Source of the DNA: an uncultured Desulfospira sp.
GTDB lineage: Bacteria; Desulfobacterota; Desulfobacteria; Desulfobacterales; Desulfobacteraceae
Reading direction: 5' to 3'
DNA length: 64,000 nt
Assembly (NCBI GenBank): GCA_963663165.1
Contig: OY760175.1
Coordinates: 1 to 64,000, forward strand
Under the pieces are notes generated by a model. It ran no database searches, had not been told where the DNA came from, and was given only the letters and a program-made list of their open reading frames with translations. A program made the position numbers and the translations under genes. Numbering within the stretch: position 1 is the stretch's first letter; each line of letters opens with the position of its first letter. This document shows, piece after piece, positions 2-17,028 of this stretch.

Positions 2-562
2 AGTTTTTTTTGGGATCTATACAAAATAGATCTGGCAACAGCCGAACGTTATAGACAGATGAAGTGCCCCCACTGCCAGGGACCGTTGTATTATGCCAAT
101 TATCCGCGCAAACCCAGGGGGGAGCCTGAAGGGTTGTCTGAAGAATGTTTTTTACAATTCAGTTTATGTTGCGGAAGGGAAGGCTGTCGACGTCGTTTGA
201 TCCCGCCAACCTGCCGTTTCCTTGGTAAAAACATTTACTGGTATGCGGCCATTCTGACGATTGTGTCCGACTGGCAGAACCAATCTGTAGGTATCACGAT
301 GTCCAGGTTTGCTGAAACAATCGGTATCTCCCGCAACACCCTTAGCCGCTGGGTCAGCTTATTCAAAGAAATATTTCCAACAAGCTCTCAATGGAAGAAA
401 ATCCGGGGCCGAGTACCTGCAAGCGTAAAAAATGATCGTCTTCCAGCAAGTTTGGTCAACTTCTATCTGCATCAACAGGCGTCCATCAAAAAAACGTTGA
501 TCTCCTGTTTGTCATTCTTGTCTCAAGGCAGTGAAATATCACAAAAAATAAGGGCCGGGTAA
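2..562 (+). CDS. Cys-rich Zn-binding/HTH hypothetical protein associated with the transposase (5' partial)
   Basis: Frame is open from base 2 (SFFWDLYKIDLATAERYRQMKCPHC...). CPHC and CCGREGC motifs; HTH-like ISRNTLSRWVSLF. Confidence 0.7.
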   Translation, partial: SFFWDLYKIDLATAERYRQMKCPHCQGPLYYANYPRKPRGEPEGLSEECFLQFSLCCGREGCRRRLIPPTCRFLGKNIYWYAAILTIVSDWQNQSVGITMSRFAETIGISRNTLSRWVSLFKEIFPTSSQWKKIRGRVPASVKNDRLPASLVNFYLHQQASIKKTLISCLSFLSQGSEISQKIRAG

Positions 563-4829: not shown

Positions 4830-6327
4830 CAATGTCATTAACTTAACGAAGTGGTTTATAACAGCAATGGAAACGACCGCTTCGATTATTGAAATTCCTT
4901 GGAAATTTTCTGCCCGGTCTTACCGGTTCTATAGTCCTGACAATAATGTCTTGTATAGCTGATATCAACTCAACAACCTTTTCACCTGAGCGAACGAACA
5001 ATAGCGGAAGAACGTCCTTCATTTTTGATAAAGCCTGTGCAAAATTCGGCTTATATTTATACATCCGATCCTCAGTATTTTTGTCAATAATGGTCTGAGT
5101 GGGAAAAGCTAATATTGATGTCAGATTCTTTGAGAACACTCTCGCATGGAAATCCTGGTAAACGGACAGGACTGATTTTCCGGTGAAATTTTCTATTTCT
5201 ATCCATTGTTTCATAGTCTTGTAGTCTTCTTCTACAGGCCACCTCAAATGATAAAGTTCAGAAAACTGATTATGCGTAAAGGTTTGTTTGTCAATGATGG
5301 ATGTAATGAGGATTTCAGCTTCGCCTGTCTCTAACTCAATCCGAATCAATCGTAGTTTTAATGGCTTTAAATCAAGCCCCATTTCTTTGCATTGTTTTAT
5401 TGAACTGGGGAATGGCGTCAAAGATATGATTTTTTCCTTCTTGCCTGAATTATAAAATTGCCGGACTATTTTCCATCTTTTTAGCTGAATCCGGGCGCAA
5501 AAATCGGCACCTTGATTGAGAATGAGATTAAACAGCCAATATGCTGGATAGCCCCTGTCCAGAAGTATAAGGTCACCTGGTACCATTTTTAAACAATGGA
5601 AGGCGGCCAGTTCACGTTCTCCAGTTTCTTTGGGGACAATTTGAGCGTCAACAGTTATTTTGTTGAGTGGATCGAACATCTGAGAAATGCGGGCCATGGG
5701 GCATTTTTCTCCCTGGCGTGGATTCCATGCTCCAAAATTTTTTAATATTGATTCAATCCGGGGCAGTTGAGCTGTCGACCCGTCTATAGCAAGCAGATTA
5801 AAACCCTCCCATCTCAAGGGGGCAAAATTCTGATAGAAAAAATCTATCTGCTGATCATTAAGCTCGGAGAATGCCTCGTATTTTAATTTCATCCTGGCTT
5901 TGGTCAAGGCTGGCTTGGAGATAAATCGCCTTATAACATCAAACCCGAATATGGCTTTAAAGAAATGGTCGAGTTCATCCTGATATGAACCCTTGACCAA
6001 ATTCATCAGGAAAAATATAAGTATTGAAAAGGACAGTTTTCTGTTACGGGTGAAATTTTTTGGACTTTGGCGGTGTTGATTGATAAAATTTGAAGAATTG
6101 ATATTTTTTTTAAGAAAATCAATTAGTTTGGCACATATATTGGAAAGCAGGTTCCGTGCCAACCGGTGTAAAATTGTTATCAAATTTCGACATGATATGC
6201 TCCTTTTTTTATGATAATTGGCTGTTATTATTAGAATTGAGTATATCATGTCGATTTCATTTTTTCAATGATTTTATCATTAATATCAGCAAGTTAAACA
6301 CAAAATCTTCTTAAGTTAATGACATTG
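4830..6327 (-). mobile_element. Intact IS4-family element
   Basis: Perfect 17-bp TIR CAATGTCATTAACTTAA (4830-4846, 6311-6327); 10-bp TSD TGTAGCAGAT (4820-4829, 6328-6337). Confidence 0.95.
4843..6249 (-). CDS. IS4-family transposase (true start probably downstream of 6249)
   Basis: LAIDGS, LLDRGY and Y-x2-R-W-x2-E-x3-K (YHLRWPVEEDYK) motifs. Confidence 0.93.
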   Translation of the reverse strand: MIYSILIITANYHKKRSISCRNLITILHRLARNLLSNICAKLIDFLKKNINSSNFINQHRQSPKNFTRNRKLSFSILIFFLMNLVKGSYQDELDHFFKAIFGFDVIRRFISKPALTKARMKLKYEAFSELNDQQIDFFYQNFAPLRWEGFNLLAIDGSTAQLPRIESILKNFGAWNPRQGEKCPMARISQMFDPLNKITVDAQIVPKETGERELAAFHCLKMVPGDLILLDRGYPAYWLFNLILNQGADFCARIQLKRWKIVRQFYNSGKKEKIISLTPFPSSIKQCKEMGLDLKPLKLRLIRIELETGEAEILITSIIDKQTFTHNQFSELYHLRWPVEEDYKTMKQWIEIENFTGKSVLSVYQDFHARVFSKNLTSILAFPTQTIIDKNTEDRMYKYKPNFAQALSKMKDVLPLLFVRSGEKVVELISAIQDIIVRTIEPVRPGRKFPRNFNNRSGRFHCCYKPLR

Positions 6328-6392
6328 TGTAGCAGATGGCAAAAAGAACGTCGAGCTTTAACATCCCGTTAATGGATAAGGATATCCGAGCT

Positions 6393-7616
6393 ATGAGTGA
6401 AAACAAATATAATCCTGTTTATGATGATAATAAATTCCTCAACACTATCTATGTTGGTAAAAGGATGAAATGGAATGGACGTTATGTTGAATTGATCACT
6501 GAAGACGAACGGCAGTATTTTGTTGTTTCAGAAAAATTAAGCGCAACACTATACGAAACAAATGGTGGTAGACAAAAAATACAAGCAACCGTTCTTGAAG
6601 CTGAAAGTGATGTGAAGGTCCCGGTTATATATCTTTCAAGAATTAATGTCAAAACAGGAAAAATTGCCGATAGTGGAGAGCAACAAATATGCTTATACCC
6701 AGAAGTTGCTGAAAAGCTATATCATTTTATTGGTAAACTTAAATCTATTGATTATTCAAACCCAGATAGTTTCAAAATTAATGTTGAAAGCATAAAAGAT
6801 TTACAGGAAAATTCTATTGATAGCTCTGATAGTTATTTTGCAGCATTAAGAAAGCATCCTATGCGCGCAAAAATAATAGAAAAAATGATTGATGAGGGCG
6901 CAATAACTTCCAAAGATATAGTAAACACTTCCTTCAGAAAAAAAGAATTGAGTATCTTCAAGAAGCTAATTGATAACAGTGAATACTGGAAAACCTATGC
7001 ATCAGAAAATAATATTTTTGATAAGAGAGAAGAGAAGGTTTGGCAGTCTTTCTTTGAAAAAAATCAATGGATATTTGGTTATGGCCTTGACTATCGTTTT
7101 CAAACTATATTGCAACGAGAATCGCATGTTTCAGATACAGAGCTAAATGGATCCAATTCGGTAATAGCTGATTATTTACTTGGAGACAAAAAATTTACTA
7201 CATTCGTTGAGATCAAAAAACCATCAACACCGTTATTTGCGCCATTAAAAAACAGATCTAATAGTTGGAGACTTTCTAATGATGTTGTGTATTCTGTTTC
7301 ACAAATACTTGAACAGAAGGCATCAGGTCTTATAAAGTTGGACAAACAGCAATATAGCTCTTCTGGTAGCCCGATTAGTCAGAAAGCATATGATTCCAAA
7401 GTAATACTTATTATGGGACACTGGAAACAACTTGGAGAATCAAGTAATGAACTTGAATTTGAAATTAAAAAGAAAACATTTGAACTCTTTCGTAATGACA
7501 GCAGGAATATTGAAATTTTAACCTATGATGAGCTTTATGATAGAGCTAAATATATTGTAGAAGGAGAAGGAAAAGAGCTCCAATCAGATTATAAAACAGA
7601 TAATATTCCATTTTAG
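6393..7616 (+). CDS. sduA: Shedu anti-phage nuclease (DUF4263)
   Basis: EEKVWQSFFEKNQWIFG, ADYLL...FVEIKKP, SVSQI and FELFR...IEILTYDELYDRA match DUF4263. Track start 6336 overlaps the IS4 TSD. Confidence 0.85.
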   Translation: MSENKYNPVYDDNKFLNTIYVGKRMKWNGRYVELITEDERQYFVVSEKLSATLYETNGGRQKIQATVLEAESDVKVPVIYLSRINVKTGKIADSGEQQICLYPEVAEKLYHFIGKLKSIDYSNPDSFKINVESIKDLQENSIDSSDSYFAALRKHPMRAKIIEKMIDEGAITSKDIVNTSFRKKELSIFKKLIDNSEYWKTYASENNIFDKREEKVWQSFFEKNQWIFGYGLDYRFQTILQRESHVSDTELNGSNSVIADYLLGDKKFTTFVEIKKPSTPLFAPLKNRSNSWRLSNDVVYSVSQILEQKASGLIKLDKQQYSSSGSPISQKAYDSKVILIMGHWKQLGESSNELEFEIKKKTFELFRNDSRNIEILTYDELYDRAKYIVEGEGKELQSDYKTDNIPF

Positions 7617-7726
7617 CTTTGACGACAGAAATTGCTATGCAGCCAGTTATCACTGGGAACATATATAGAGTGGTGAGTTTAGTGAGGAAAAAAGGGGGAT
7701 AGTCTGCCTTTGATCCTTGTTGAAAT

Positions 7727-7796: not shown

Positions 7797-7878
7797 TCGC
7801 AAATAAATCAAAATTTTTGAGGAATAGTAGAGCGACAGATATGTCTATTTATGTAGCGAGTTTTTTTTGTTGCGTGTT

Positions 7879-7944
7879 CTACCCCGCCCGACCCAGCTGG
7901 ACCCCGCTATACCCCGCCATATTTTGAAAAAATACTACCCCGCC
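7879..7944 (+). repeat. Phased ACCC(C/A)GCY direct repeats
   Basis: Copies at 7881, 7891, 7901 and 7911 (10-bp period) and a fifth at 7937. Confidence 0.8.
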
Positions 7945-7984
7945 ACCATCCATCCGATCATAGATCTAAGGAGGTATCAGGTCT

Positions 7985-8524
7985 ATGAAAAAACAAATCC
8001 GACAGCGCAGGTGTAAAAACTGCCAAAATTTATTCAAGCCAGATCCCCGTCATTTGAAACGGCAAAAATTTTGTAACGAACCCGAATGCAAAATTGCCAG
8101 TAAAAAACACAGCCAGCAAAAATGGCTGAATAAGCCAAAGAATCAGGATTATTTTTCAGGGCCTGAGAATGTGGTCCGTGTTCAGGAATGGCGCCAAAGC
8201 AATCCTGGTTACTGGAAGCGAACAAAGCCTCCGGGAAAGCCATCCTTAACTGAAAATACGTTACAAGAGATAAAAACTGCCAAAACCATTGCTGGTAAAG
8301 GATCTTCGATGGATTTAATTCAAATACCGTTACAAGATTTAATATCGGCCAAGACCCTTGTCTTTATTGGGTTTGACACCCTCCTTAACAAAAATGCGTT
8401 ACAAGAGATTATTGATGCCACGGACCAGGAGACGGTAAAATTGACACCAGATATTATGAAGGAACTAACCAAAAAGAAGAGGTGTCAGCATGGGCAAACG
8501 ATTTTCTTCAAAGGAACTTTATAG
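7985..8524 (+). CDS. Hypothetical Cys4 Zn-binding protein
   Basis: GGAGG RBS; CKNC...QKFCNEPEC motif. Confidence 0.8.
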   Translation: MKKQIRQRRCKNCQNLFKPDPRHLKRQKFCNEPECKIASKKHSQQKWLNKPKNQDYFSGPENVVRVQEWRQSNPGYWKRTKPPGKPSLTENTLQEIKTAKTIAGKGSSMDLIQIPLQDLISAKTLVFIGFDTLLNKNALQEIIDATDQETVKLTPDIMKELTKKKRCQHGQTIFFKGTL

Positions 8525-8798
8525 ATTACGAAATTCAATACCCATTCATGTGTTGATCGAAACGGAACTGGGTATTCCAGCCAAAATAAGTGAAGGGGTT
8601 TTCCGTTTTCTGTGTCCCTTGTGCAATGAATTTCAGACTGCAGTTAATCCTAAGACGAACCTGAGCAGGTGTTTTCGATGCGAAAAGAATTTTAATACCA
8701 TAGATCTGGTAATGGCCTGTCGGCACATTGGTTTTGTTGACAGTGTCAAATATCTTCAGATTATTTTGAATACAAGAGCACCTGATCATGACGTCTGA
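8490..8798 (+). CDS. Stand-alone primase-type (CHC2-like) zinc finger protein
   Basis: FLCPLC...TAVNPKTNLSRCFRCEKNFNTIDLVM...FVDSVKYL resembles the DnaG N-terminal Zn domain. Confidence 0.8.
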   Translation: MGKRFSSKELYRLRNSIPIHVLIETELGIPAKISEGVFRFLCPLCNEFQTAVNPKTNLSRCFRCEKNFNTIDLVMACRHIGFVDSVKYLQIILNTRAPDHDV

Positions 8799-9747
8799 TT
8801 TGGGAACAGAACTCAATATACAGTCTTATCGTCGATGTCGAGTGCCGGCAGAAATAATGCCGCCACTCGGCCTTCCGTTGCCGGAAATTTTTCATGGGTA
8901 TCTGAATTATTACAAACACCAGCTTCGTAACGAAAACAATATCGGCGCAATGAGGCAAATACTGATGAGTTTTCATTTTTTTCTTCAAACGTCAGGCATT
9001 CTTTTAAATGAAATATCCATTCATCAGGTTGATCAATTTTTAGCCCGTTACAACACCAATTATTCTGCCGGGGCAGCCAGATCTAACCGGTCACATCTTC
9101 GGCAGTTTCTCAAGCACCTCTACCGAGGCGGGTATATCAAAAAAGACATCTCTGTGCTGGTGGTGAGCCCTCCTGAGTTTGCTCGGTCAAAACCACCGAA
9201 ATTCTTGCGCCCCCATGAAGTGCAAAAAATGTTTAAGCTCATGAATTTGTCAACAGCAAAAGATCTCCGTATTTATGCGGCTATGCACCTGGCATATTTT
9301 TTGGGATTGAGGCCCGGAGAAATCAGCTCACTTACCCTGGATGACATCTCTTTCAGGCAAAAAGAGATTTTTATTCGTTCGAGAAAAAATTACAGCCCTG
9401 CTCATCTTCCTGTGCCGGACAATGTGATCAAGGCCATCACCGCTTATATTATCGGCGGGAGACCAGAAACCCAATCTCGAACCTTATTTTTACAGTTAGT
9501 GCCGCCTTATAAACCGGTTGGCAGGAGCGACATCCCCCGTCATATAAGAGAATTTATGGCTGATAGCAATCTTGAGTCAAACACATATTGGCTGAGGCAT
9601 TCTTACGCCCAGAATTTGCTGGAGTCCGGTGCTTCCATTTATGAGATAAAAGAAATGATGGGCCATAAAAGCATCGGAGCAACGCAAAAATATCTGAGCA
9701 TCCATATCAACCTGATGCGGGAGGTTATCCTCGGTGAAACGCTTTAA
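8788..9747 (+). CDS. Tyrosine recombinase RitA-like
   Basis: LGLRPGEI, YWLRHSYA and MGH...TQKY motifs. Confidence 0.92.
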   Translation: MTSDLGTELNIQSYRRCRVPAEIMPPLGLPLPEIFHGYLNYYKHQLRNENNIGAMRQILMSFHFFLQTSGILLNEISIHQVDQFLARYNTNYSAGAARSNRSHLRQFLKHLYRGGYIKKDISVLVVSPPEFARSKPPKFLRPHEVQKMFKLMNLSTAKDLRIYAAMHLAYFLGLRPGEISSLTLDDISFRQKEIFIRSRKNYSPAHLPVPDNVIKAITAYIIGGRPETQSRTLFLQLVPPYKPVGRSDIPRHIREFMADSNLESNTYWLRHSYAQNLLESGASIYEIKEMMGHKSIGATQKYLSIHINLMREVILGETL

Positions 9748-10708
9748 AAGCTTTCTTAGCGAATATATAGAGGATTTTATCGAATACCGTCTTCAATTGG
9801 GATATTCAGATAAAATGCTGCTGTGCAGCCTTCGGTTGCTGGATCGGTATGTTGCCCAAAGGGATGTGACCTGGACATCATTTGATCCGTTGTTTTTCAT
9901 CCGACTCCGTTCAGACCTCAATTGTGAAAACCGTTCCATCAATACATTTTTTCGAACGTTTCAAATGTTTTTCAAATATCTGATCCGCAGAGACCTGATT
10001 TTGACAAATCCCATACAGGAGATTGCTGAGCTGCCGGAAAATCAGATTATCCCTTTTATTTTTTCTCCGAAAGAAACGGATCTTTTATTGAAAACTGTCA
10101 TAAAACAGATGCGAAAAACAAAAAAATATTACCTCACCGATTTTAGCGGTTATATCTCTTTTCTGCTGATGGCCCGGTGCGGCTTGAGAATATCGGAGAC
10201 GTTCAATTTGCTGCAAAAGAACTACAGGTCTGAAGAAAGGACAATCTATATTGAGAAAACAAAATTTAAAAAAGACCGACTGATCCCAATACCCAAGGCC
10301 GTTTCTTGTGAAATCGACAATTTTTTGAACGTGCGACGGCTTTTACTTATTGCCGATGTGCATCCTTTATTATTGATCAAAGGAGATGGCGGAAAGTTAC
10401 CCCGCCATTTCATGGATCGAAAATTTAAAAAAGCGATTTCGGCCATTAACCTTGATCAGCACAAAAAAATTATTGGTGCTACAAATTTCAGCAACCCGAC
10501 ACGGCACTCACTTCGTCATTCCTTTGCTGTAAATACACTGAAACGAATTAAACAACAGGGCAAGTCTGCCCAAAATGCGTTGCCGGTGCTGGCCGCTTAC
10601 ATGGGACACAGCGAATACAAGTATACGACCAAATATCTGAGAGTTCTGGATGCAGAGCATCGCCGCCAAATGCTTGATTTTTCGATGTTGAGAAGTGAGG
10701 ATGTATGA
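9734..10708 (+). CDS. Tyrosine recombinase RitB-like
   Basis: CGLRISE, KTKFKKDRLIP, HSLRHSFAV and LPVLAAYMGH...TKY motifs. Confidence 0.92.
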   Translation: MKRFKSFLSEYIEDFIEYRLQLGYSDKMLLCSLRLLDRYVAQRDVTWTSFDPLFFIRLRSDLNCENRSINTFFRTFQMFFKYLIRRDLILTNPIQEIAELPENQIIPFIFSPKETDLLLKTVIKQMRKTKKYYLTDFSGYISFLLMARCGLRISETFNLLQKNYRSEERTIYIEKTKFKKDRLIPIPKAVSCEIDNFLNVRRLLLIADVHPLLLIKGDGGKLPRHFMDRKFKKAISAINLDQHKKIIGATNFSNPTRHSLRHSFAVNTLKRIKQQGKSAQNALPVLAAYMGHSEYKYTTKYLRVLDAEHRRQMLDFSMLRSEDV

Positions 10709-11724
10709 GATTATCCACCTGCCTGCATCAGTATTTTTATGAATACCTGCCCCATATAAAAGGGACCAGCGAACAAAGCATTAAAACTTACCAGCAGGCT
10801 TTTTCTTTGTTTCTGCATTTTTTGGCGGATTATCATTCGATCAAAATCAAATCCTTGAAAATTGACCATTTAACACCTGACGCTGTTCTGGGCTTCCTGA
10901 ATCATTTGGAAACAGACCGAAAAAATACCGTCCAGACCCGGAACAACCGCTTGGCCGTGATCAAGTCGCTGGCCAAGATGATCCGATTCATGCATCCGGA
11001 CAAAAAACGAGTCGCAGAAGCTCTTTTGACCATCCCTCAGAAAAGGGCTCAAAAGAAGGTGATGGGATTTTTACACCCAGAAGAAATAATGAAAATTTTC
11101 AGTGTCGTCGATTTAAAAAAGAAGGAAGGGATGAGAGATTTTACCATTCTCCATCTGCTTTACGACTCCGGTGCCAGAGCCAGCGAGATTGCCACACTGG
11201 AATTTGATTATTTTGATCCTGAAAACGAAACCATTGCGGTCCTGGGCAAGGGGAACCGATACAGGTTGATCAACCTGTGGTCCAAAACCGCATCACTGAT
11301 CTCAGACTATATCACCAATCATAGAGTAGCCCCCATCCCATTATTTGCACACCGGCTGTTCATTAATCAGCGGAGGCGGGGAATGACCCGGCATGGTATC
11401 AACAAAATTTGCCGAAGATATCTGACAAAAGCATTGCCGGAAAAACGGTTGAAAGGTCTGAGTCCGGCCCATTGCTTCAGACATTCTTGTGCGGTTAATA
11501 TGGTGACTTCAGGGGCCCCCGTATCGGATATCAAAAATCGCCTGGGCCATCAAAGCGTTGAATCAACAATGGCTTATTTGCAGCTGGACTTGTCAAAAAA
11601 ACGGGAAATCCAGGATAAGCTCATTGAATATATGCAATCGAAAATAAATCAAGACAAGAAGATTGATGAGCTGATCGACTGGAAAAATAATGCTGAAATC
11701 CTTGCCTGGCTTGACAGTTTATGA
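10705..11724 (+). CDS. Tyrosine recombinase RitC-like
   Basis: TRNNRLAVIKS, SGARASE, LGKGNRYR, HCFRHSCA and LGH...TMAY motifs. Confidence 0.92.
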   Translation: MRLSTCLHQYFYEYLPHIKGTSEQSIKTYQQAFSLFLHFLADYHSIKIKSLKIDHLTPDAVLGFLNHLETDRKNTVQTRNNRLAVIKSLAKMIRFMHPDKKRVAEALLTIPQKRAQKKVMGFLHPEEIMKIFSVVDLKKKEGMRDFTILHLLYDSGARASEIATLEFDYFDPENETIAVLGKGNRYRLINLWSKTASLISDYITNHRVAPIPLFAHRLFINQRRRGMTRHGINKICRRYLTKALPEKRLKGLSPAHCFRHSCAVNMVTSGAPVSDIKNRLGHQSVESTMAYLQLDLSKKREIQDKLIEYMQSKINQDKKIDELIDWKNNAEILAWLDSL

Positions 11725-12049
11725 TCCATTGAGGTAGCCTTTTGCTATCTTTAAAGCGGTATGTAGTAAAACAAAAAATTATGTTGCCAGTGATTATGAA
11801 AAATTTTATAATCCACTGTAACTCATTGAATTTAAAAGTCGATATTGATTTGCACAGCGGGTGTTTGAATTTATCATAAAAATCAATGAGTTATGACCAC
11901 TCGCAACATAAGTCTATCATCTGTCGCCCAGACCTCTTGGAAAATAGTATTGAATAACAGAAGCATTGTGGGGTGGAAGCCGTTTTAAACTCACATTCCG
12001 CACCCTAATTTGTGATAAATCCGTATTTTTTTTGTGCGTGCAACGTCAA

Positions 12050-12806: not shown

Positions 12807-13595
12807 TTATTGGGGTATGGACTGGGGATTAGTAGTGTTCGTTGTGTTGGGACCTTCCGTTCGATAACTGAGTCCGTCCCGGATATTAATGATGTGAACA
12901 TTGTGCATCAATCGATCGATAATGGCATGAGTTACAACCGGATCTCCCAGAGTCGTCCCCCAATCCTCAAGACTGATTGAAGATGTGGCAATAAAGGCGG
13001 TATCGTCCTGGCAGACGCTGATCAAATCCAGCAGCAGGCTGGGATATTCCGGCTTTGTGCGGATACCGCCCACATTATCTATGATCAGAAGATCAAAACG
13101 GCTTAAGCCGGCGACCACCTCATCGGTGGATTCGTCAGCCAATGACGTATACAGCATGGCCAGAAGTTTTTGCAGGGAAAAAAATCGAACCTTATAACCC
13201 GCACGGCAGGCCTGGTCGCCAAGGGCTGAGGCAATATGAGTTTTGCCCGTGCCGGTTTTCCCAAAAATAAGCAGCGGCTGCTTTCGATCCACAAAGGATA
13301 GCTCCATCAGATCTTTGAGGTGCTCTACATTCAGGCTTGGCTGGAAGTTAAAATCAAAGTTATCAAAGGTCATGTTTCTGGGGAAATCCGCTGTTTTTAG
13401 CCGCTTTTCAAGGGATCGGTGCTTTCTTGCCTTCATCTGTACGTCCACGATGTCGGCCAGGAACGCCAAATGACCGGATTGATTTTTCTGCGCCTTGGCA
13501 AGGGCCTGCTCCAGATATTGGGCCATATCCTTGAGATAAAGCTTGCGCAGTTTCTTTTTAACCTGGTCGCTTAAGTTTTCATTCATCCTTGCCAT
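12807..13595 (-). CDS. istB: IS21 helper ATPase IstB
   Basis: TFDNFDFNFQP, GKTGTGKTH, LLIIDN and AIIDRLMH motifs. Confidence 0.92.
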   Translation of the reverse strand: MARMNENLSDQVKKKLRKLYLKDMAQYLEQALAKAQKNQSGHLAFLADIVDVQMKARKHRSLEKRLKTADFPRNMTFDNFDFNFQPSLNVEHLKDLMELSFVDRKQPLLIFGKTGTGKTHIASALGDQACRAGYKVRFFSLQKLLAMLYTSLADESTDEVVAGLSRFDLLIIDNVGGIRTKPEYPSLLLDLISVCQDDTAFIATSSISLEDWGTTLGDPVVTHAIIDRLMHNVHIINIRDGLSYRTEGPNTTNTTNPQSIPQ

Positions 13596-15081
13596 CCATT
13601 GTTTTTCTGTTAATCAGGTGGTCATACCTTTGTGGGTTATCCTGCTCCACTGAACAGGATTTCAAATAGCTCCGGGTGTTGTTGGGCAGACCTTTTCCGG
13701 CTTTTGTTTTGTTTGAAGCTTTAATGTTTTTCCCCTGGATGATACGCAGGACGGCATCAGCACTAAATGAGTCAAACCGCGTGGCATGAGCTAATGCCCC
13801 TGAGACCACATCCGCACCATAGCGGTCGGCATATTTGAGGATACGGCCCATATGGTACCCGGCAGCGCTTTTCCGGGTTTCTTTCAATCCGTTATAATAG
13901 ACCTGCGCCACCTCACCCAATCTCAAAAAGGCATCTTTGAGCAATTGACTCTGGCCTGTCATCTTCCTGTACAGGGCTTCATGTTCAGGCAACACCTGCC
14001 TGTCTTCTTGAGTGTAAACATGCCGGCAATCCATCGTTTCATCACACCATATTTCAATGTGATCACGGAACAAACGGACCTGGACATAACGGCCTATCAG
14101 TTCAGGATTGGCAGAGTATCGTTTTTTGTCGATGGTGACACAAAAATCAACGTTAACAAGTCGACGTACTTCCTTAAAAAATTGATCCGTTTTATTCCAT
14201 GGCACAGGCTTTAACAGACTTTTTTCCCTTGCCAGGCGATCCACAGGCCTTTCCCGGGTGGTACCGTGGATACGGACATTGGCTGTGTTCGCCCGCCAGG
14301 CATCGGCCTTGTTATTGAGATCCTCAAGATCAATAAATTCTTTGCCTCTAAGGAAATTGTCTTCAATATACCGGAACGGCCGCTCTACCTTGCCGTGTCG
14401 TTCCTTTTTGCCGGGTAGAAGGATGACGATCTCAAAGTCATACTCCTGGGCAAACCGTTTAAATACCGGATTGATCCAAACGGTTCCGGGGCCCGTGTGC
14501 CTGCCCACCGTGGTCATATTGTCATAGGTGATTTTGTGGGGAACCGCCCCGATCTCGTCAAACGCCTCTTCATGCAACCGGATCACTGATTCTATAGTTT
14601 CATCAAAAAAGTGACGTATAAATATCCAACGACTGAAGCACAATACAAAAGATCCGGTATGCACCACCACGCGTTGTCCACCCATGTACACACTATGAGG
14701 ACTCCAGTCCATCTGCCCCTCATCTCCAGGGGCATGATCAATTGGAGGCCTGGGCACCTTCAAGCCTTTGGGCCGGATTATTCTGATATACTCCTTGAGG
14801 ATGGAGTATCCGCCCGTGTACCCCAACAACGTGATCTCTTCCAACACCCGAACCCCGCTGAGATGTTTTTCTTTTACAAGGTAACCGATTTTGGCCTTGT
14901 AAGGATCAAGTTTGCTTTTGCGGGGACTGGTTTGAGGCGCATTAATAACATTGTTGCAGCCCAATGCCCTGCGCACTGCCTTGCGGCTGTGCCCGGTCTG
15001 TTTTGCTGTCTGACGGATGGATGCTGTGCGCCCAAAGACTTTACGAATACGTTCCTGTTCCTTTTCACTCAACCGGCTCAT
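13579..15081 (-). CDS. istA: IS21 transposase IstA
   Basis: SKLDPYK, GYTGGYSIL, PGDEGQMDW, YDNM, GKVERP and RIHGTT motifs. Confidence 0.93.
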   Translation of the reverse strand: MSRLSEKEQERIRKVFGRTASIRQTAKQTGHSRKAVRRALGCNNVINAPQTSPRKSKLDPYKAKIGYLVKEKHLSGVRVLEEITLLGYTGGYSILKEYIRIIRPKGLKVPRPPIDHAPGDEGQMDWSPHSVYMGGQRVVVHTGSFVLCFSRWIFIRHFFDETIESVIRLHEEAFDEIGAVPHKITYDNMTTVGRHTGPGTVWINPVFKRFAQEYDFEIVILLPGKKERHGKVERPFRYIEDNFLRGKEFIDLEDLNNKADAWRANTANVRIHGTTRERPVDRLAREKSLLKPVPWNKTDQFFKEVRRLVNVDFCVTIDKKRYSANPELIGRYVQVRLFRDHIEIWCDETMDCRHVYTQEDRQVLPEHEALYRKMTGQSQLLKDAFLRLGEVAQVYYNGLKETRKSAAGYHMGRILKYADRYGADVVSGALAHATRFDSFSADAVLRIIQGKNIKASNKTKAGKGLPNNTRSYLKSCSVEQDNPQRYDHLINRKTMDGKDE

Positions 15082-15901
15082 GGTGCCCTCCTATCAACTC
15101 ATTGAGCCGTTTCATCCGGGCACCGGCCCGCCCTATAAAGTCTTTAAGGGCGCAGACCTTGGAACCATTGATCGTGCCGCTGCCAATGCAGTTGTTCAGC
15201 TTGGACATTTTTGAAAGAATGGCATCAATAATCAAATAATAATTTTCCTTGTCCCGGCTTACGGACTCCAGCGCTTGCCTGGGAGATTCAAGCAGGTGGC
15301 GCCTGGCTCCGGGATCACTGGTCTTGCACCACAGGTCCACCAGACGGTTCACCTCCCGGGTTTTAAGGTTGTGTTTTTGAATACAAAGAGAAAAATCGGC
15401 CTGGGTTGCAGGCTGCAACCGCGCCAGTGACGGACCGACCCCGGCAGGGAGCAGCCCAAGTTTGATATCGTGGACAATTTCCGGGGTCAGGCTGCGGATC
15501 ATGGAAAGCCGTCGGCAAACCCAGCTTTTATGCCGCTCAAGGAGTATCGCCGCTTCAACCTGATTGAGCCCTTCTATTTCTACAAGTTCCCAGACCACCA
15601 GGGCCTCCATGATCGTGGAAAACCCATCCGGGCGGTTCAGAAGGTAGAGCAATGCCTTGGCTTCTGCAGCACTTTTTTTCAACACAGCCACTTTAAGCGT
15701 CTTCATGCCAAGAAGGCCTGCACAGCGATGCCGCTTGAAACCGTCTATTAAAATATGGCAACCTCCTTGCTCAACCGCAACAACAGCCGTTAATTGGCCA
15801 TGCTTGACTAATGAAGCCGCCATCTTTTCCTGGGCACCGGCGTGGACCGGCCGCAGGAATCCCAGACGTAAATCCAATTGGTCCGGACGCAGGTTAATCA
15901 T
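15065..15901 (-). CDS. ParB/RepB/Spo0J-like protein with HTH
   Basis: SLVKHGQLTAV...LIDGFKR; HTH NQVEAAILLERHKSWVCRRL. Confidence 0.85.
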   Translation of the reverse strand: MINLRPDQLDLRLGFLRPVHAGAQEKMAASLVKHGQLTAVVAVEQGGCHILIDGFKRHRCAGLLGMKTLKVAVLKKSAAEAKALLYLLNRPDGFSTIMEALVVWELVEIEGLNQVEAAILLERHKSWVCRRLSMIRSLTPEIVHDIKLGLLPAGVGPSLARLQPATQADFSLCIQKHNLKTREVNRLVDLWCKTSDPGARRHLLESPRQALESVSRDKENYYLIIDAILSKMSKLNNCIGSGTINGSKVCALKDFIGRAGARMKRLNELIGGHHEPVE

Positions 15902-16316
15902 TTGGACCTCCGGCTATATTGAGGCTTTTTTGAAAAATCTCCCCGATTGAGATAAGGCCACTGCCGCCGGTGGGTTGCTTAGGCGCCTTGGACGTCGGTG
16001 CTGCAACATTTTTTTTGGGAAGGGAAAGCACTTGAAACAGTCGGCCGTCAAAGGCTATGAGATCTTTATCAATGAGCCCGTTCCTGGCCTGGATATATTC
16101 GTCCAGGCGGATGGCCGTCAATGAACAGATTTTATCATAGCCGTAATAAGACATTCCCTGACGATCTGCCACCATCACCAGAAAAAGGTACAGCACAAGC
16201 TCCTGGTGGTTCAGGCTGCCCCAATACCCCTGGCGGATAAACCGGTGGCTTATCCATGCGAAACTGCCGTTAATTTTTCTAATTCGATGGTCCTTCAACG
16301 GTTCCTTGGTAATCAT
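15894..16316 (-). CDS. Winged-HTH-like hypothetical protein
   Basis: GGAGG RBS; LYLFLVMVADRQGMSYYGYDKICSL...ARNGLIDKDLI. Confidence 0.75.
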   Translation of the reverse strand: MITKEPLKDHRIRKINGSFAWISHRFIRQGYWGSLNHQELVLYLFLVMVADRQGMSYYGYDKICSLTAIRLDEYIQARNGLIDKDLIAFDGRLFQVLSLPKKNVAAPTSKAPKQPTGGSGLISIGEIFQKSLNIAGGPND

Positions 16317-16749
16317 TTTTACCCTCCTTGGAAATATAATGATGAAAATTGTCGCCTGAATACCGTCTGCCATATCCCCGCCGGGGGAATTGATCTACAA
16401 TCAGACCTTTTCTTCCGCAAAAACAGCAGCATGGATGGGAAGACGGAGGCGTTACCCGAAGACTATCATTGGATTTGGAGGGTGTTGAAGTGTCATCATC
16501 CACGGTTTTTTGAGAATTTCTTAATCTCCGCTCTTTTTCCTGCCGACGATGGGCTAACTTACCTTTTTCAGTTTGTCGATATTTCTTCTGGGCGTTACGG
16601 TGAGCTTCTCTTTGAGCAGTTTCCCGACAGGATTCACAGCAATAAATCTGTCCACGCCAGCAACTGTGGCAGATATAAAAAATGCTGCCGCATCGTTTAC
16701 ACTGGATTTCTTTTAATAAAACGATCTCCACATTTTCCGTTCTTGCCAT
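16279..16749 (-). CDS. Cys-rich Zn-binding hypothetical protein
   Basis: CKRC, CHSC, YCCESC and CCCFCG motifs; first gene of the element. Confidence 0.75.
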   Translation of the reverse strand: MARTENVEIVLLKEIQCKRCGSIFYICHSCWRGQIYCCESCRETAQREAHRNAQKKYRQTEKGKLAHRRQEKERRLRNSQKTVDDDTSTPSKSNDSLRVTPPSSHPCCCFCGRKGLIVDQFPRRGYGRRYSGDNFHHYISKEGKNDYQGTVEGPSN

Positions 16750-17028
16750 AAAACGGAAGCCGTGATTATATGAAGATGTTGGGTAGCTTCCGTATTTTAT
16801 ATGGATGTCTGCTTTTTGAAGGCTCGAAGCGGCCTACTTCGAGCCTTCCTTATTTTTCAAATCCATCCAAGAAACAAAACCAAATTCAAAGAAAAAAAGG
16901 AAGAAAATATATTTTTAAAATATGGGATGAAGAAGAGACAAAGTAAAAAGGATGGAGGCTTTGTTACCGGCTAAAGGGGTGGCCTGCTTCATCGCCATAG
17001 GTGGGGACGGTTACGACCGGCGGTAACA

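Follow-up and report, generated by a model that had tools for sequence, protein, structure and literature searches.

A five-gene RIT element from an uncultured Desulfospira with a swappable two-gene leader, and CCCCGC repeats that appear to accompany its primase-type zinc finger

The stretch of DNA analysed here, called the window throughout, comprises 64,000 nucleotides from an uncultured Desulfospira sp. (assembly GCA_963663165.1, contig OY760175.1, positions 1 to 64,000, forward strand) and carries at positions 7849-11911 a mobile element of the recombinase-in-trio (RIT) kind. It is a real RIT that has recently multiplied. The two small genes ahead of its three recombinase genes form a leader that is a swappable block: related RITs exchange it, and DDE transposons share it. 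Judging from sequence comparison, the second of these genes, for a stand-alone primase-type zinc finger, travels with CCCCGC repeats that lie just inside the ends of mobile elements of three unrelated kinds, and this gene-repeat link is the new result of our analysis. The 9-bp palindrome that surrounds the window copy is a property of that site alone, and is part of a dispersed host repeat.

The source genome (6.74 Mb, one contig) holds three further copies of the 4063-bp element, identical save for a single-nucleotide polymorphism in one of them. GTCTAT abuts both ends in 4/4 copies, with a left flank reading TGTCTAT in each. The ends are proven because the three further copies have unrelated or only partly related flanks: the left end starts with TTATGTAGCGAGT at 7849 (+), and the right end finishes with ACTCGCAACATAA at 11911, a 12/13 inverted match to the left end. 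All coordinates proposed in a first-pass annotation of the window, which had been made from the letters alone, were confirmed, and the four copies are near-identical five-gene units. Identical copies at different sites, together with true empty sites, indicate that the whole moves as a unit and was recently mobile, in line with the distinct, possibly active RIT subclass suggested by the annotation.

Five overlapping open reading frames lie inside the ends, encoding 179, 102, 319, 324 and 339 amino acids (aa). The last three are ritA (8788..9747, +), ritB (9734..10708, +) and ritC (10705..11724, +), with overlaps of 14 and 4 nt; each product belongs to PF00589, displays by inspection the catalytic R...H-x-x-R...H...Y motif, and in blastp against three plasmid RITs finds its best match in its canonical counterpart, A to A, B to B, and C to C in order. 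Besides this gene order with short overlaps, the element shares with canonical RITs the presence of identical copies within one genome and a palindromic sequence after ritC. It differs in size (4063 bp), gene number (five) and terminal match (12/13 bp, as against 26-30/30 in the canonical controls), and was therefore filed as a RIT variant. Van Houdt 2012 (PMC3414803) describes RITs of about 3.5 kb with a 28-29-bp inverted repeat; the related leader-bearing elements measure 4.0-4.8 kb against the canonical length of about 3.5 kb, have the two-gene leader inside the left end, and use lineage-specific 6-bp cores, while the terminal inverted repeat of the window element is 13 bp against a canonical 28-34 bp. 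The window RitA (319 aa) is some 85-90 aa shorter than that of the three plasmid control RITs (403-410 aa), which carry no leader genes. It has one N-terminal SAM-like match, and other leader-bearing members have longer open frames; two core-binding domains are reported for the RitA of RITs in PMC8138268. Named relatives of the element are mostly from the Desulfobacterota. A count of ritA across the phylum was uninformative (2/401 genomes at E 1e-40, with only five candidates scored per genome).

The two GTCTAT copies (7843..7848 and 11912..11917, both +) agree with the predicted crossover at a 6-bp core. One element copy sits in the coding sequence of the first gene of a multicopy insertion sequence (IS), and ten intact copies of that IS have both flanks contiguous around a single GTCTAT (7 at 100%, 3 at 96-99%). 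Such a true empty target, occupied by the RIT in another IS copy, is found in the window at 51..56 (-). Two more RIT families are present in the source genome, one of four copies (core TGGTAT) and one of eight (core CTCCAA; family 3). Of its 16 RIT copies, 13 carry matching cores left and right; in one the two sides differ at a single base and in another at three, while in the last an IS masks the comparison. For 46 distinct elements from other genomes and metagenomes the two cores are identical in 38 and differ by one base in six and by three in two. At least nine different cores occur among the related elements, each fixed in a lineage. With the consensus judged by eye, the lineage core stands on the left in 6/7 single-mismatch cases, which hints at strand-biased, replicative movement. 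The host flanks show a weak arm consensus: scored with a matrix from other genomes' target flanks, 0, 4, 63 and 549 of 1920 genomic GTCTAT contexts reach the values of the four real targets. No orthologous empty locus for the three-mismatch copy of family 2 was found among 30 relatives. A coupling-sequence reading of one family-3 copy, whose left flank is unlike the core, was rejected, this flank being an IS end that abuts the RIT.

The first leader gene (slot 1; 7985..8524, +) encodes a Cys4 protein of 179 aa, here called ZnB, that belongs to no known family: it has no match in Pfam, NCBIfam or PHROGs, and the Atlas gives only unnamed clusters. It has 171 close relatives, and 1618 clusters at 50% identity are reached by profile. 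Residues C10, C13, C30 and C35 are conserved in 95-97% of 150 rows, in keeping with the Cys4 zinc protein of the first-pass annotation; the predicted fold (pLDDT 60, pTM 0.32, best Z 2.9) gave no usable structural match. The slot-2 gene (8490..8798, +) encodes the stand-alone finger of 102 aa, a Cys4 variant of CHC2. The primase-type assignment of the first-pass annotation holds as to family, with PF01807 above cut-off (E 1.3e-7) and an Atlas cluster of 1810 members of which 86% have PF01807, but not as to the ligands, which are four cysteines (C42, C45, C61, C64) rather than the CHC2 pattern. By profile match it shares the fold family of the zinc-binding domain of DnaG primase (PF01807; 1d0q, E 0.06), and unlike DnaG it is stand-alone, has Cys4 ligands, lacks the polymerase (TOPRIM) domain and is encoded by a mobile element. 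TIGR01391 is matched at positions 6-91 of 414 only and far below cut-off. A single-sequence query did not find the finger in viral contigs, and its model, folded without an alignment (pLDDT 43), was not used.

A weak hairpin (7958..7988, +; 95.7% of cells paired) encloses the Shine-Dalgarno sequence and start codon of the ZnB frame, with almost no covariation and a z of -1.6; an Rfam search returned one match only, due to chance. Slot-1 genes seem to travel with upstream hairpins of their own (at loci L038 and L167-L190, L numbers denoting loci outside the window, and at about 16750-16850 (-) of the window): ZnA is preceded by a two-hairpin motif in elements of the RIT, IS21 and Mu-like kinds, ZnC by a different one. 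Possibly these hairpins are cis-regulatory RNAs.

The gene neighbourhoods of the two zinc-protein genes were surveyed as the first-pass annotation had proposed. A search with ZnB gave 80 metagenome loci, 62 of them with at least 700 bp downstream, and there the following genes are finger-ritA in 46, winged-helix-istA in 13, the finger only in one, and nothing in two. Both frames lie inside the ends, are conserved in those 46/62 loci and are under purifying selection (median dN/dS 0.18 for ZnB, n=51, and 0.06 for the finger, n=30); they are part of the element. A second survey, by RitA alignment, gave 80 genome loci of this clade only, with several copies per genome. Of these, 59 have 1300 bp upstream, and a slot-2 gene precedes ritA in 57 (finger 12, winged-helix protein 45); in the remaining two, which lack one, ritA is 5'-truncated. 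On a quick tree of RitA and RitB (46 rows), ZnB-finger and ZnC-winged-helix leaders interleave, which forces at least four changes for each of the two leader types, and in a pair of elements 90.8% alike the exchanged block runs from about nt 32 to about ritA codon 50. The view that the accessory module is the RIT's own fails on two counts: closely related RITs carry a different leader pair, and the same gene types head the adjoining IS21 (12807-16749) and a TG...CA Mu-like transposon with six copies, both DDE transposons. The adjoining IS21, on the minus strand, has five genes, for a Cys-rich protein, a winged-helix protein, a ParB-like protein, istA and istB; its leader types are those of RIT family 3.

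Directly inside the left end of the window element, at 7881..7943 (+), four ACCCCGC motifs and one ACCCAGC stand around an A/T tract. These are the proposed sites of the primase-type finger, with whose gene they co-occur. Which repeats lie just inside the left end goes with the gene in slot 2 rather than with that in slot 1 or with the recombinase: at least two CCCCGC-type motifs are present in 41/41 RITs and 2/2 source-genome Mu-like elements with the finger, and the cluster is found in 0/39 winged-helix elements (30 RIT, 9 IS21), which instead have TTCTT/ATTCC-rich repeats (a pattern tuned after looking). A Caballeronia IS21 with a ZnB-winged-helix leader likewise has no CCCCGC cluster. In a further check, 8/8 Mu-like elements with room, from other genomes, have clusters of four to seven. 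Where an IS21 carries the finger gene after istB, cluster and A-tract lie just inside the right end, facing inward, in 4/7 distinct cases. The background is 21 clusters in 112350 sequence windows. The IS21-family and Mu-like TG...CA transposons of the source genome resemble the element in leader gene kinds and in CCCCGC or pyrimidine repeats inside an end, and differ from it in having a DDE transposase and ATPase, variable target duplications and no fixed core. We found no description of the leader in the literature searched, which missed most subscription journals.

The ends offer further candidate sites. Two direct recombinase-type arms, TTATGTAGC (7849) and TTTTGTTGC (7865), occupy 7849..7874 (+); they came from a motif scan, are conserved in related elements, and are putative recombinase binding sites. 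The right terminal arm (11899..11911, -), seen in the copies and in related elements, reads TTATGTTGCGAGT inward. An internal pair of candidate arm-like sites, TATGTAG (11760) and TTATGTTGCC (11779), was seen in the sequence and the motif scan at 11760..11790 (+), and a 15-bp inverted repeat spans 11819..11893. Its arm at 11881-11893 is a perfect match to the consensus of integration host factor (IHF), with 0.01 such matches expected per 200 bp. Outside the element, 7642-7663 is a 15-bp inverted match to the internal site at 11780-11794.

We lean towards a reading in which the element forms a circle with an arm-core-arm junction and integrates, probably replicatively, at weak sites matched in the core, while the finger binds the repeats and acts on the end beside them. 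RitA, RitB and RitC would join the two ends into the circle, giving a junction like a Xer site, and IHF bending of the right end may help. The circle would then recombine with chromosomal sites of matching core that bear a short degenerate arm; specificity would lie in core match and weak arms, which leaves tens to hundreds of possible sites in place of a unique palindrome. The element seems to retain the left core, which would suit a single-strand, replicative copy-out/copy-in route. The finger, bound to the CCCCGC repeats just inside the end, might shape the synaptic complex, set direction like an excisionase, or license the replication step. In sister elements the winged-helix protein and pyrimidine repeats would do the same job, and the slot-1 Cys4 protein may be a partner regulator.

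Several observations weigh against this reading. Canonical RITs multiply without any leader, which is therefore not a universal need. The left bias of 6/7 falls short of significance (one-sided p about 0.06), and an empty site could be matched to a single target-side core variant only. The CCCCGC motif was chosen after the RIT data had been seen. Fingers form one group per element type, so that the co-occurrence amounts to about three independent lineages and not fifty. Among the remaining IS21 finger cases the cluster is degenerate in 1/7 and none was seen in 2/7, whose ends were not placed, and an IS21 on a Desulforapulum plasmid has clusters at its left as well as its right end, an arrangement that would suit promoter control too. 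No circle joint was found in the assembled Logan contigs of four runs, which drop rare forms and cannot show absence, nor was a tandem or junction pattern seen in other genomes (0/5), which cannot show absence either; the best match of the latter search in the source genome is a copy whose target resembles a left end.

The alternative with the most weight, though we consider it the less probable account, is that the leader is purely a transcriptional control cassette, whose finger or winged-helix protein would repress or activate the element's operon, acting through the repeats on a promoter at the left end or circle junction. Small DNA-binding genes do lead an overlapping operon, which in RITs and Mu-like elements has the repeats immediately ahead of it, and one IS21 has repeats at its left end too; a regulator that need not contact the recombinase also fits free swapping. 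A precedent is Arc of IS605 elements (bioRxiv 10.64898/2026.09.24.754181), which is likewise a small accessory DNA-binding transposon protein with a cognate site (binding being putative here), but has a ribbon-helix-helix fold, is a demonstrated promoter repressor, and differs from the leader finger in fold and site position. Against a transcriptional role, the main IS21 cluster is downstream of all genes and lies on the strand opposite to the gene, one such IS21 has no cluster at its left end, and, a weak point, no sigma-70 match in forward orientation covers the repeats; a promoter at the circle junction could still reconcile the IS21 layout.

Returning to the reading in which the finger acts on the end, a bolder form of it, to which we give little credence, is that the finger and its CCCCGC/A-tract repeats make up a portable end module that does not depend on the recombinase and through which host priming is recruited or licensed for replicative copy-out. 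Just as doubtfully, this module would be interchangeable with that of winged-helix protein and pyrimidine repeats, and used by RITs, IS21 and Mu-like elements alike. Host priming is suggested by the fold family and iteron-like layout only.

That the two frames are passengers, a captured DDE transposon end without a role in the RIT, is improbable. The same genes and repeats do occur in DDE elements, and canonical RITs do without these frames. Yet the purifying selection given above acts inside RITs, RIT fingers form a group of their own (25 rows, support 91), and the slot is filled in 57/59 loci, though by unrelated proteins.

Still less credible is a site-specific system for the 9-bp palindrome served by RIT-specific accessory proteins, the defined target of the first-pass annotation. 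The perfect palindrome, with arms GCGACAGAT (7832-7840) and ATCTGTCGC (11919-11927), is real and beyond chance, at least nine complementary pairs around the core being found in only 1/1920 genomic GTCTAT contexts, and near-palindromic empty family members exist in relatives. The four copies, however, have 9, 3, 1 and 2 such pairs, and at least nine occur in only 1/46 distinct two-ended related elements. The palindrome is not the target rule because it is absent at 3/4 copies and 45/46 related elements, and as a requirement it is refuted; one target, inside the IS coding sequence, is not palindromic, and the leader genes head unrelated transposons. Ricker 2013, the main RIT paper, may already describe target repeats or palindromes. 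As for ordinary target-site duplications from a staggered cut, which would likewise turn one GTCTAT into two on insertion, we see hardly any room for them, the 6-mer being fixed per lineage, the two sides differing in 8/46 elements, and the encoded recombinases being of tyrosine type only.

Among known systems besides RITs, the SE elements, GInts and Tn554 (PMC10214605) are similar in having several tyrosine recombinase genes with small helpers, a 6-bp spacer and no transfer genes; SE elements and Tn554 also in strand-biased movement, which we only infer here. The proteins of these elements differ. In SE elements it is the right junction that receives the carried 6-mer, with no need for a match in the target, whereas in window-type RITs both sides usually agree and the left is where the lineage core tends to be. 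Instead of the IntA, Tfp, large IntB and Srap (GinA-D) set of SE elements and GInts, the window element has three recombinases of 319-339 aa that match RitA, RitB and RitC. In this 2023 paper (PMC10214605), the target specificity of RITs, their empty site and the way they move are described as not tested, and no RIT transposition as reproduced. The window element offers exact ends and a core, targets that occur naturally in occupied and in empty form, and sister elements whose cores differ, which makes such questions directly testable, and core swapping may retarget the element. If the preferred reading is true, a helper protein that keeps its own repeats through three unrelated transposition chemistries would amount to a layer of control that we did not find in the literature searched. 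If host priming were involved as well, the changeable 6-bp core could, as a long shot, yield a first workable RIT transposition system.

The host target of the window copy belongs to a dispersed repeat of about 100 bp with a GTCTAT/TGGTAT-like centre and exchangeable halves (7800-7848 and 11912-11985). Its left half (7800..7842, +) holds the arm GCGACAGAT, and similar left halves without a RIT occur in the source genome (G000) and in the relatives G002 and G022. The right half (11918..11985, +), which holds ATCTGTCGC, was followed by profile search, with 18 matches in G000, seeds included, and none in a shuffle; in the relative G001 it is matched over all 74 bases, with no RIT there. In relatives, RIT-free members share only the left or only the right half of the window site, some being near-palindromic, and an orthologous empty locus for the window copy was not found among 40 relatives. 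The long host-repeat profile was rejected as a general RIT target (0/53 right and 2/73 left flanks of RITs in other genomes), and no clear match to chromosomal dif was found. Six of the eight copies of family 3 (on the source contig G000:C1 at 6121009, 2834292 and six more places; L038) edge a GGACTTGGGA-type repeat of about 140 copies, of which empty versions exist.

Members of the dispersed host repeat on G000:C1 are found at, for example, 302423, 2026942, 2029164, 2313421, 2888958 and 5649024. They sit immediately 3' of genes for defence or toxin-antitoxin systems (Shedu, AbiEii, AAA_21-DUF4276, SIR2-kinase, GmrSD, TacA-GNAT), and two inverted members bracket a TacA-GNAT pair over 2.2 kb; this could be a dif-module-like cassette system. 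In the window, a Shedu (SduA_C) defence gene (6336-7616) immediately precedes the target, and an IS4-type element (4843-6249) has inserted ahead of that gene. Further tyrosine recombinases, by inspection a tandem XerC/D-like pair and a 469-aa integron-integrase-like protein (G000:C1 1807147-1809049 and 4194198-4195607), are candidates for acting on the host repeat. At L054 (1270-1530) a palindromic host-site member leads into about 250 bp that close with a RIT right end, after which comes a complete RIT; here a deleted RIT was probably used as target. Finally, at L077 and L078 the ritB gene of a five-gene RIT is interrupted by a distantly related RIT trio in reverse orientation.

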